DNA from: a virus
Taxonomy: Duplodnaviria > Caudoviricetes
DNA: 64,000 nt
Virus record (IMG/VR): IMGVR_UViG_3300025120_010521
Reading direction: 5' to 3' (one strand)
The notes beneath the pieces were generated by a model. It searched no databases and was not told where the DNA came from. It saw only the letters and a program-made list of their open reading frames with translations. A program made the position numbers and the translations under genes. How positions within the stretch are numbered: position 1 is the stretch's first letter; every line of letters begins with the position of its first letter. Below are positions 24,364-49,017 of this stretch, piece by piece.

Positions 24364-24676
24364 CAAAACTCTCCCCACATCCGCATGATGATGTTGCATT
24401 TGGATTTACAACATTTAAATATGATCCACCTAATTCTTCAACATAGTCAATTGTACAACCAAGTATGTACATTTCAGCAACTTTATCTATTAATAATGCT
24501 TTGCCTTCATTTAGTTCAAATTTAATTGTATCTTCAGCTTCTTCATCTGCGAAGTTCCATTCATACTTAAAACCTGCACATCCACCGCCTTTAACAGAAA
24601 AACGCACATATGGTTTATCTTTGCTTAATGCTGTGTTAGTTAAATATGATTTTGCTGTATCTGTTATGTTAATCAT
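24356..24676 (-). CDS. iscA: A-type Fe-S carrier (IscA/SufA/ErpA, HesB family)
   Basis: GGGCAGFKY, IDY, NPNATSSCGCGESF. Confidence 0.93.
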   Translation of the reverse strand: MINITDTAKSYLTNTALSKDKPYVRFSVKGGGCAGFKYEWNFADEEAEDTIKFELNEGKALLIDKVAEMYILGCTIDYVEELGGSYLNVVNPNATSSCGCGESFGA

Positions 24677-25199
24677 TTGTAGTATTTATCTGTTTTTGCG
24701 ATCTAAGTCGTCTACGTTTTTTAGCTTGTTTTGATGTGCTTAACAGCCTATCATAGTTATCAAGTTGTCTTTGGTTTTCATTAAACCATGTTACATATTC
24801 AATTGCTCTTGTTTTTGCCGCTGGATTGTAAATTATATTTGTATAATAAGGATGATAAAGACTATCATTTTCATCTTGCATATATTTGATATAAATTTCA
24901 CCATCAATAACTGTAAAGTGTTTATCTTTTTTTATATAATAATCATTACCGCTTGGATAGTTGCGAACCTTAATGTGGTTTGGTGGTATTCTATCAATCC
25001 AATGCATTCGTGGAAACCAAGAACGTTTACCGTTCCAAGATACACACTCTGGTCTATCTTGTGTTACTTCCCATGCCATTACATAACAAGGATCGTTATC
25101 AATTTTACCTTGAGCTACAACTAGCTCGTCACCAAAGTTATTCTTGCGACCTGATCGCCACACAGTTTTTTCAATAGTGTAATTTTCAGGTCGCGACAT
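24669..25199 (-). CDS. Hypothetical protein
   Basis: 176 aa ORF, GGA SD. Confidence 0.6.
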   Translation of the reverse strand: MSRPENYTIEKTVWRSGRKNNFGDELVVAQGKIDNDPCYVMAWEVTQDRPECVSWNGKRSWFPRMHWIDRIPPNHIKVRNYPSGNDYYIKKDKHFTVIDGEIYIKYMQDENDSLYHPYYTNIIYNPAAKTRAIEYVTWFNENQRQLDNYDRLLSTSKQAKKRRRLRSQKQINTTND

Positions 25200-25208
25200 T
25201 TTGAATCC

Positions 25209-25400
25209 TTAGGCACTCGCAGTTTCGGTAGTTTTTGCTTCTTGTATTTCTTTTCTTCTTACTTTTGCAAGTTTTGTGATTTCAGATAAGGCTTTTCTAG
25301 CTCTTGTGCCTGCCGCCTTATTACCTTTTTCAGAAAACTTATCATTGTTGTCTTTGTATTCTTCAAACAATGTTAATAATTGTTGACTTGTAGTACTCAT
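25209..25400 (-). CDS. Histone H1-like Hc1-family small basic protein
   Basis: KGNKAAGTRARKALSEITKLAKVRRKEIQ; AAGGAG SD. Confidence 0.8.
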   Translation of the reverse strand: MSTTSQQLLTLFEEYKDNNDKFSEKGNKAAGTRARKALSEITKLAKVRRKEIQEAKTTETASA

Positions 25401-25423
25401 AATTATTTCTCCTTAACTTTGTT

Positions 25424-25452
25424 ATTTTAATATATTTTCTTGTCAAAGTCAA
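25424..25452 (-). promoter_or_regulatory. Sigma70-like promoter of the Hc1-like gene
   Basis: TTGACT-N17-TAAAAT. Confidence 0.55.
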
Positions 25453-25483
25453 TTAAATTCACTAAACCCCAATCAAGGTGGCC

Positions 25484-25671
25484 AAAAGTGAGCAAAAAAT
25501 TTGTCCCACTCAATTAGGGTTCCGTTATTATATTTCTACCAGATGGTAACGTATATACAACGCGATATAATTCATCCTCATTCAAGAGATCTTACCCCTC
25601 AAGATTCATGGTTTATACCAAACCCAAAAAACCAACGATAGCTTGAACCTCAAGTTTCTATGGTTTCTCAC
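25484..25671 (-). ncRNA. Candidate structured small RNA (~188 nt) directly downstream of hfq
   Basis: No credible ORF; ATAAATA at 25678-25684 with +1 geometry; several hairpins; terminal hairpin 25488-25509 plus U4. Confidence 0.5.
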
Positions 25672-25705
25672 TATATGTATTTATATATTAAAACTACTGA
25701 TAATA

Positions 25706-25912
25706 TTATAATGTAATTGGATCAATTGGCATTATTGTTGAAATTGCATTTTTATATACTAATTGAGTATGTTGCTCACGTTGTAGATACAATGTGCTCT
25801 CATCCATTGCCGTTATGACGCCACTCAATTTAATACCGTTAATTAAAAAAACAGTAACTTGAGATTTTGCATCTAATAATTTTTTTATAAATTTGTCTTC
25901 TTGTTCATGCAT
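25706..25912 (-). CDS. hfq: RNA chaperone Hfq homolog (divergent)
   Basis: Sm1 VFLINGIKLSGVI and Sm2 QLVYKNAISTIMP. Confidence 0.9.
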   Translation of the reverse strand: MHEQEDKFIKKLLDAKSQVTVFLINGIKLSGVITAMDESTLYLQREQHTQLVYKNAISTIMPIDPITL

Positions 25913-25945
25913 GATAATTAATAACCTTCATAAGTATTTATCCAG

Positions 25946-26158
25946 TTATTTATTATCTTTAGAGTTTTTAACCAATTTCATCATCATTAGGTATTGTTGA
26001 TACGATTCTTCGACTGCTGGGTATCTCCTACGCATATATTGTTCATGTTTTGCTCGTTGATCTAGTTTAAACTGTTTACGTTTTAATGTATACAGATCTT
26101 GTTCGAGTTGTTTTATTTTATGCGTTTGTAAGTACTCGTCAGGAGCCATTTGTGTCAA
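25946..26158 (-). CDS. Hypothetical coiled-coil protein
   Basis: ORF overlapping the pepA end. Confidence 0.6.
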   Translation of the reverse strand: MTQMAPDEYLQTHKIKQLEQDLYTLKRKQFKLDQRAKHEQYMRRRYPAVEESYQQYLMMMKLVKNSKDNK

Positions 26159-35836: not shown

Positions 35837-35912
35837 TGGTGGAGGATACAGGGATCGAACCTGCTACCTCCTGAATGCAAATCAGGCGCTCTCCCAGATG
35901 AGCTAATCCCCC
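35837..35912 (-). tRNA. tRNA-Ala(TGC)
   Basis: G3:U70 acceptor pair, CCTGA-TTTGCAT-TCAGG, CCA encoded. Confidence 0.95.
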
Positions 35913-40396: not shown

Positions 40397-40472
40397 TGGT
40401 GCCGGCAGAGAGATTCGAACTCCCGACCTGACGATTACAAATCGCCTGCTCTACCAACTGAGCTACGCCGGC
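40397..40472 (-). tRNA. tRNA-Thr(TGT)
   Basis: GCCGGCG acceptor, GGCGA-TTTGTAA-TCGTC, CCA encoded. Confidence 0.95.
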
Positions 40473-40490
40473 ACATTGCATTTATTTATA

Positions 40491-40518
40491 TAGAGGAGCA
40501 AAGTTAAATGCTCCTCTA
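40491..40518 (-). terminator. 10-bp inverted repeat, probable terminator/processing hairpin
   Basis: TAGAGGAGCA-N8-TGCTCCTCTA; weak U-tract. Confidence 0.5.
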
Positions 40519-40554
40519 CTCGATATAGTTATTGTTGTTATTTGTAACGAGAGA

Positions 40555-47978: not shown

Positions 47979-48350
47979 TTATGCTCCTATTTTTAAATTT
48001 ACTTCACTGTACTCATTATCATCCATCTTTTGTAATTCATCATCAGCAATTGATTTAGCCGCTAAATTTCTCACAAGTCCTGGAAACTTAACTCTTGCCA
48101 TTGGACCTGCTTCTTTTTTAGCTACGTTATCAATTAAGTAACGCCATAATTTAATTGCTAGATTATGATCGTAAACACCTTTAGCACGTTTACGCATAAG
48201 ATTTTTAATAATTGGCATATATTGACTTCTATAAAGATCTCCATCATTTGTTGCTAATAATTCTAACTCATCAGCAAGATCTTGAACTTTAGTAGGGTCA
48301 ACAGTACCTTCTTGTACTTCTAGTAAATAATCTTTAAATTGTCTAGTCAT
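47979..48350 (-). CDS. Hypothetical protein, CTS-like start
   Basis: MTRQFKDYLLE; TATAAATA inside the upstream promoter. Confidence 0.65.
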   Translation of the reverse strand: MTRQFKDYLLEVQEGTVDPTKVQDLADELELLATNDGDLYRSQYMPIIKNLMRKRAKGVYDHNLAIKLWRYLIDNVAKKEAGPMARVKFPGLVRNLAAKSIADDELQKMDDNEYSEVNLKIGA

Positions 48351-48369
48351 AACTAATTCCTAATAGTAT

Positions 48370-48398
48370 TGTATATACTAGTGTATTTATACTGTCAA
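48370..48398 (-). promoter_or_regulatory. Composite promoter (sigma70-like with nested TATAAATA)
   Basis: TTGACA-GTATAAATACACTAGTA-TATACA. Confidence 0.55.
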
Positions 48399-48412: not shown

Positions 48413-48979
48413 TTAATTAAATGTGATATATTCGTCTTTATTAGGCTTTACATCATCATCATTAGTTGAATTTCCAGGTTCTGTTCCTGGAGTCTCTATT
48501 TCTTGCTGTAATATTGGATTCCAAAACGTTCCCATATTTGGACCTGCATATCCTACACCAATAGCTAAATTAATATCATCACCATGATAGCATCCACAAA
48601 ATCCTATATCAAGTCCATAATTTACTGCTGATGTAACTGTAAACATTGCCGCCAAGCCAATTTCCATTAATGAATTGCTGTTTGCTCCTTCATCACCACT
48701 ATCTCTATATGAAAAAGTAAACAAGTACGGAGCCATTACTTGAGGATTGCGTCTATCTTCCGGAGAATCAACATCACACCAAGTATTTTTAAATATTTGA
48801 TTTCGTTTTTCTGGATTTGACCAATCTAAAACTTCAATTTTGTATGGAACTGCGTTTTGCTTACTTGGACAATTATTGTGTACTTCATCTAATATTTGAT
48901 TAATAATGTTACGATCAGGAACTTTGTTAGACCAACTAAACGTTTGCTTTTTGTTTTTAAGTATATCTTGCCAATCCAT
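48413..48979 (-). CDS. Nitroreductase-like protein
   Basis: PSKQN, EIG.AA.F...A...GLDIGFCGC. Confidence 0.7.
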   Translation of the reverse strand: MDWQDILKNKKQTFSWSNKVPDRNIINQILDEVHNNCPSKQNAVPYKIEVLDWSNPEKRNQIFKNTWCDVDSPEDRRNPQVMAPYLFTFSYRDSGDEGANSNSLMEIGLAAMFTVTSAVNYGLDIGFCGCYHGDDINLAIGVGYAGPNMGTFWNPILQQEIETPGTEPGNSTNDDDVKPNKDEYITFN

Positions 48980-49017
48980 ATCTATATAAATCCCTATATA
49001 GTATATTTATAATTGGA

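Follow-up and report, generated by a model that had tools for sequence, protein, structure and literature searches.

A conserved, structured RNA between the hfq and Hc1 genes of a marine jumbo phage

Histone-like Hc1 genes are widespread in large phages, and to our knowledge nothing is known of how they are controlled there; nor do we know of any RNA partners or targets of the Hfq proteins that phages encode. A locus in which the two genes lie side by side raises the question of what the non-coding DNA between them specifies, and which of its neighbors it serves. The locus described here belongs to a 64,000-nt stretch of viral DNA (IMG/VR record IMGVR_UViG_3300025120_010521; the window hereafter), in which the minus strand carries every gene and G+C is about 32%. 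One close relative, an IMG/VR contig of 328 kb, has direct terminal repeats and a completeness rated at 100%; the source is therefore a marine jumbo phage.

A preliminary description of this DNA placed a 188-nt small RNA, with its own promoter and terminator, in a large non-coding gap directly after hfq, and took gene and RNA together as an hfq-sRNA module. The gap is indeed non-coding, spanning 305 nt (25401-25705) with short unconserved ORFs only. It holds a conserved, structured RNA of about 215 nt, running from 25671 to ~25455 on the minus strand, between the phage hfq and Hc1. The features of the locus are, in the direction of transcription:

25935-25942, minus strand: GATAAATA box upstream of hfq, late-type and promoter-like, invariant in 13 aligned relatives
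25706-25912, minus strand: phage hfq, 68 aa (Pfam Hfq, E = 1.9e-20)
25678-25685, minus strand: TATAAATA box immediately past the hfq stop codon, with ATAAATA in 25 of 25 distinct relatives
25671, minus strand: predicted 5' end of the RNA, 6 nt past the box (contig X5, with 0 differences, ends at 25672)
25626-25669, minus strand: P1, long 5' hairpin with an invariant GGU triloop at 25647-25649
25564-25619, minus strand: P2, variable long hairpin from clade-wise consensus folds
25527-25562, minus strand: P3, hairpin with a UUACC/GGUAG apex, also from clade-wise consensus folds
25514-25585, minus strand: 23-codon TTG ORF, an open frame and no gene
25459-25525, minus strand: 3' module, a 67-nt irregular hairpin ACGGAACCC...GGGUUUAGUGA, a conserved block defined by covariation
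25450-25458, minus strand: U-rich tail after the module, a possible weak terminator tract read from the sequence
25424-25452, minus strand: sigma-70-like promoter for Hc1, TTGACT-17-TAAAAT (10/12 matches)
25209-25400, minus strand: Hc1 histone-H1-like gene, 63 aa (Pfam Hc1, E = 1e-18), with the SD AAGGAG at 25409-25414

Conserved hairpins of the gap

Searching with the phage Hfq protein yielded 28 marine metagenome loci, and 2 IMG/VR contigs have the same gene arrangement; together they provide 25 distinct gap sequences. Wherever downstream sequence is present in these loci and contigs, hfq is followed by a gap of 249-320 nt and then by Hc1. A DNA search of GenBank phages returned zero matches to the stretch, and the Hfq matches in those phages are less than 42% identical and unrelated. 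One Hfq of the main clade (P0031) is filed at NCBI as 'RNA chaperone Hfq [Crocinitomicaceae bacterium TMED45]'; the record is probably phage DNA binned into a bacterial MAG, and its name would thus be no host assignment.

The 188-nt form of the RNA proposed initially folds at -51 kcal/mol, better than its shuffles (z = -2.9), and the structure is conserved in relatives. The middle part of the gap alignment (25 distinct relatives) is unalignable between subclades; clade-wise consensus folds give a four-hairpin plan, P1-P2-P3-module, which is common to subclades A, B, C and E. Part of the original proposal, a long 5' hairpin capped by CTTGA-GGT-TCAAG, is present, and a GGU-triloop hairpin with a covarying stem recurs in all 25 distinct relatives. 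It lies 24-30 nt past the box in each of them, and its apex GAGGUUC is conserved in the gap alignment. P1 cells are paired at 90.5%, compared with 27-69% in slid controls, a comparison in which the GGT-anchored alignment somewhat favors pairing, and compensatory changes occur in all five loop-proximal inner pairs. The other GGU-triloop hairpins of the window are uninformative, as most of them are found within genes.

From one subclade to another, P2 changes in both sequence and length, and it is too variable for cross-subclade alignment. Further along, the proposed TACC/GGTA pairing forms the apex of a hairpin kept in the closest relatives, and the proposed GGTTT/AAACC pairing gives way to another one, which is conserved in that segment. 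The boundary between P3 and the module is ambiguous, because an AAC is able to pair either way. An open frame also crosses this region, and the 23-codon TTG ORF, read as a micropeptide gene, could have been the conserved element. One relative (L092) has lost most of this ORF, the start codon is not maintained, and even among the closest relatives a 1-nt indel puts the ORF out of frame. The alignments refute the micropeptide, which retains next to no probability.

The conserved core of the RNA is its 3' module, with a length of exactly 67 nt and zero indels in 30 loci. From the base upward, the module consists of an 11-13-bp basal helix, an internal loop of variable sequence and a GG/CC step; further up, an invariant A.G mismatch is followed by a 5-bp apical helix and a 9-11-nt loop (25488-25498) that contains UUGCU. 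Within the main clade alone, 81.5% of cells are paired, compared with 29-50% when the partners are slid, and 10 pairs are compensatory. In a joint alignment with a sister clade (clade II, described below) these figures become 92.3%, 33-48% and 11, and the covariation score is 0.457 as against at most 0.112 with slid partners. The sense strand is fixed by many G.U pairs and by two models, R1 and R2, which score 89 and 81 bits in this direction and 20 and 18.5 in the other.

The 3' half of the RNA consequently looks different from its first description. A GTGGG-ACAAA...TTTG-CTCAC hairpin with U4 can be drawn in the window, but it lies inside the module, where the pairing that covaries (25525-25459) joins ACAAA to UUUUG and sets GUGG opposite CCAC. 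Since the covarying 67-nt hairpin spans 25525-25459, an RNA ending at 25484 would have its conserved element cut in two; it reaches at least to 25459, about 25-30 nt beyond 25484. Past the module, the tail reads UUUAGUGA(A/U)UUU, and a terminator scan reported none at 25450-25458. With no terminator found by the scan and a U4 hairpin other than the conserved pairing, the terminator proposed initially is not supported.

The complete 328-kb genome and three other records each have one copy of the module, which is therefore not a general terminator or processing signal. At the Rfam 15 gathering threshold, four tRNAs alone pass in the window. Nothing relevant appears between 25300 and 25800 at E up to 10, and 17 relatives give no match at E up to 0.1. 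A full-text literature search found no description of such an RNA. Scanning 185,579 prokaryote genomes with a pattern of the motif gave 28 matches, which differ in length and belong to unrelated taxa; none of those tested exceeds 23 bits with the models, and they hence look like chance. A match in L115 (25 bits) lies within an ORF of an unrelated contig of different base composition.

Promoter-like boxes and RNA-library contigs

The box past the hfq stop codon was first noticed as an ATAAATA lying 6 nt ahead of G25671, and is confirmed as the full TATAAATA on the minus strand. This octamer is identical to the consensus of T4 late promoters and marks intergenic starts in the window. Its minus-strand copies are intergenic in four cases out of four, each directly upstream of a gene or of tRNA-Thr, and the octamer is under-represented in the window (5 copies, with ~12 expected). 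An invariant GATAAATA box also precedes hfq, which probably puts the gene and the RNA in one temporal class.

A promoter of another type lies between the module and Hc1. Its TTGACT and TAAAAT hexamers are invariant in the main clade, and the site is absent in clade II. In other phages, ATAAATA occurs within 100 nt upstream of Hc1 in 11 of 41 distinct regions, compared with a background of 1.7%, so that Hc1 is often a late-box gene. Such frequent late boxes would fit a post-hfq box that is, at least ancestrally, the late promoter of Hc1.

Among the sequencing runs listed, 15 from nine studies contain at least some of the sampled words of the sequence, and 11 of these 15 are recorded as RNA. Contigs of four RNA runs were compared with the window. 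A 303-nt contig (X1) matches 25357-25659 with 0 differences and extends from P1 through the module into the Hc1 ORF; X2 gave an identical contig, and X1 and X2 probably represent one data set. Another contig of 174 nt (X5), equally with 0 differences, covers 25502-25672, so that its end adjoins the predicted start. RNA-library contigs thus cover the RNA. Being assembled, they establish presence and continuity; strand and true transcript ends cannot be judged from them, and DNA carry-over is possible. The hfq gene is almost uncovered in the four RNA runs, which, for contigs, is no evidence about hfq expression.

The sister clade and the possible roles of the RNA

Clade II consists of Hfq relatives at 52-55% identity to that of the window (L146-L148), together with kin from the protein collection (L149-L155). 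Its gene order is hfq-gap-Hc1-(~200 aa)-IscA, and the gap measures just 160-175 nt. It contains a box, one hairpin and then a 66-67-nt hairpin homologous to the module. The box is CTAAATATAAT in most members and CATAAATACA in L149; CTAAATATAAT is only loosely like TATAAATA. The second hairpin was found by the first model (20 bits, E = 0.007, filters off) and aligns with the module of the window, having GGAnCCCC, a GUUGCU loop and GGGGUU in common with it. It ends 13-35 nt ahead of the Hc1 SD with no promoter-like site between. Transcription must hence pass through the module to reach Hc1, and the clade II module must belong to the transcript, or leader, of Hc1. Placed inside the Hc1 5' leader, the core of the RNA is tied to Hc1 at least as closely as to hfq.

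Both models find the module absent from 78 Hc1 loci of other phages, and none of these 78 has hfq within 3 kb. With a single-copy module that is missing from Hc1 loci lacking hfq, the three elements hfq, RNA and Hc1 move as one cassette, a pattern that amounts to one or two independent evolutionary events only.

Within this cassette, the RNA may well be a late leader or cis element of Hc1, a reading that we hold tentatively, at not quite an even chance. Control of Hc1 through a leader is more likely than a classic Hfq-bound small RNA. The conserved synteny, the covariation of the module, the layout of clade II, the contig that continues into Hc1, the late boxes of Hc1 and a precedent in Chlamydia all argue for the leader, and together bring it close to, though short of, even probability. 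The RNA would then work mainly in cis, as the structured leader of a late Hc1 transcript, with late transcription proceeding from the box through P1-P3 and the module toward Hc1. The module would be a protein-recognized hairpin and possibly a leaky terminator as well, since in both clades its G+C-rich basal stem leads into a U-rich tract. The share of late transcription, processing or translation that gets through to the histone-like protein would depend on it. As a candidate for its reader, phage Hfq comes first, because hfq is always adjacent and has the same promoter type, and Hc1 itself would be the second. In the clade of the window, the sigma-70-type promoter between the module and Hc1 would allow Hc1 to be made without the leader too, and part of the late RNA may stop at the module as free RNA.

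That same promoter, invariant in the main clade, is an argument against the leader, as Hc1 would appear to need none here. The 78 Hc1 loci of other phages without the module show, moreover, that it is not a general Hc1 leader. No conserved masking of the Hc1 SD by the leader was seen. Duplexes between the RNA and the Hc1 start region have z-scores of ~0, with sites that differ between relatives, and a run of four ARN before Hc1, matched by 16 of 69 other genes, is unexceptional for this genome.

In Chlamydia, the small RNA IhtA, which is short, antisense and encoded in trans, controls Hc1 (hctA) at the RNA level and pairs with the start region of hctA (PMC3469542, PMC4355289). The two systems resemble each other in that a toxic, late, DNA-condensing, histone-like Hc1 protein is tied to a dedicated non-coding RNA. 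They differ in that the phage RNA lies in cis upstream of Hc1 and is not consistently complementary to the start of that gene. At E up to 10, the phage RNA matches none of the Rfam families, among them IhtA if Rfam has it. Structured 5' leaders and attenuators that release leader-derived small RNAs, such as riboswitch- or protein-controlled terminators, offer a second comparison. They share with the phage RNA a hairpin and U-rich tract placed between a promoter and a downstream SD, and in clade II this route is the only one to Hc1. Unlike them, the module has no evident ligand pocket, given that its internal loop varies in sequence, and a second promoter offers a way around the element in the main clade. 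An alternative pairing of the antiterminator kind was not found either.

The RNA could instead be a stand-alone, trans-acting late sRNA of ~215 nt, which would use the module as terminator, ending there, and would work together with the Hfq encoded next to it. What stands of the original claim of a phage sRNA is a discrete non-coding RNA, conserved and structured, that follows hfq directly and has a promoter-like box of its own; the proposed terminator and 3' end are not supported. The conserved box, the stability of the 5' hairpin and the U-rich tract behind a G+C-rich basal stem would suit a free RNA, as would the late-type boxes on both hfq and the RNA and the invariant GGU and UUGCU loops, which could be seed or recognition sites. 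The module, besides, occurs only where hfq is the upstream neighbor and is missing from the 78 Hc1 loci, all of which lack hfq; this co-occurrence, however, amounts to one or two phylogenetic events only. The partner protein fits such a role poorly. Aligned to Caulobacter Hfq (6gwk), the phage Hfq has E, S and N at three of four proximal-pocket positions, which we take to be Q8, F42 and H57 in E. coli Hfq numbering. Its rim segment reads LLDAK where the alignment has VRKSK, so that the basic rim is lost, and the distal-face positions are kept. On the side of the RNA, no conserved U-tail was seen, and no (ARN)n run of at least three repeats stands at a conserved place among the 25 relatives. 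An efficient terminator in clade II, at 13-35 nt from the Hc1 SD and with no promoter between, would silence Hc1, and the RNA-library contig passes through the module into Hc1.

Proteobacterial Hfq-dependent sRNAs of class I and class II are likewise structured small RNAs from genes with their own promoter, here beside the gene for Hfq, but the phage RNA is without their terminator U-tail and their rim or ARN motifs, and its presumed partner has an altered face and rim. The hfq-sRNA module envisaged initially is thus not upheld in its classic form, and a stand-alone sRNA, the main rival of the leader, is less likely than the latter, even if phage Hfq may possibly bind the RNA in a non-textbook manner.

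Two further explanations would dispense with a regulatory RNA. The hairpin could be a passive intercistronic terminator, an RNase III-type processing site or a stability hairpin, which separates the hfq and Hc1 messages and has no regulatory partner. Long, irregular and interrupted by an internal loop, the hairpin lies between two genes of one strand, ahead of a U-rich tract, and resembles the intercistronic RNase III sites of T7, which are irregular intergenic hairpins too. The module differs from these in being single-copy per genome, as the complete 328-kb relative attests. Its exact 67-nt length and its invariant loop and mismatches persist across relatives with Hfq down to ~66-70% identity, and the P1 triloop is invariant as well. 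Such constraint appears far greater than a stability hairpin would need, which makes a passive role improbable. A DNA-level element, that is, an UP element or regulator site for the Hc1 promoter, is suggested by the 3' end of the module, where TTTAGTGA and a T-rich stretch lie unvarying at about -37 to -55 of the sigma-70-like promoter. Against this, the pairing is maintained by compensatory changes, its many G.U pairs would turn into A.C if the opposite strand were read, and clade II has the module but lacks that promoter. A promoter-UP function might exist alongside the RNA; taken alone, it is contradicted by covariation and is very unlikely.

In one functional cassette of hfq, RNA and Hc1, the late RNA could be a specific ligand of the distal-face-only phage Hfq, of Hc1 or of both, forming an RNP that times or restrains late DNA condensation by Hc1. 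Recognition would take place at the UUGCU loop, the A.G mismatch and the GGU triloop, and the RNP would work as nucleoid-associated RNAs do with HU in E. coli. We regard this reading as speculative and, on balance, improbable; if true, the phage would encode an as yet undescribed kind of chromatin-control RNP. The RNA itself is sharply defined, single-copy and covarying, matches no known family, is present in ocean RNA-library contigs and links hfq to Hc1 in at least two clades of marine jumbo phages. A 67-nt hairpin with few invariant unpaired bases offers a handle on what phage Hfq binds and on how a potentially toxic, DNA-condensing protein is timed.

Neighboring genes and other transcripts

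Several other features of the region accompany the locus. Upstream of hfq, the window encodes a small basic protein with the motif KHEQYMRRRYPxV (25946-26158), which is present as two tandem paralogues in the 328-kb relative (L003 1951-2457) and is not conserved in clade II. Downstream, 7 nt past the end of Hc1, starts a 176-aa protein (24669-25199, minus strand) with a basic C-terminal tail, KKRRRLR, and no Pfam or PHROGs match; no neighboring protein searched against PHROGs matched. Both hfq clades keep a protein of ~180-204 aa at this place after Hc1, with an IscA-type Fe-S protein next in order, and it may be part of the same hfq-RNA-Hc1 cassette as the 176-aa protein of the window. In clade II (L154 929-1240), a SET-domain protein (PF00856) and a methyltransferase lie a few genes upstream of hfq and Hc1, a notable neighborhood for a histone-like gene.

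The RNA genes of the window vary in their upstream sites. The tRNA-Thr gene (40397-40472, minus strand) has its own TATAAATA box at 40483-40490, 10 nt before the mature 5' end, and a G+C-rich hairpin AGAGGAGCA...TGCTCCTCT lies ahead of this box (region 40472-40530, minus strand). The tRNA-Ala gene (35837-35912) is preceded by a TTGACA-17-TATACT site, and the phage thus seems to use both promoter types for its RNA genes. Two more transcripts driven by TATAAATA have a short 5' hairpin ahead of the start codon (48350-48391 and 48979-49011, minus strand), and a 5' hairpin may be a general feature of the late transcripts of this phage.
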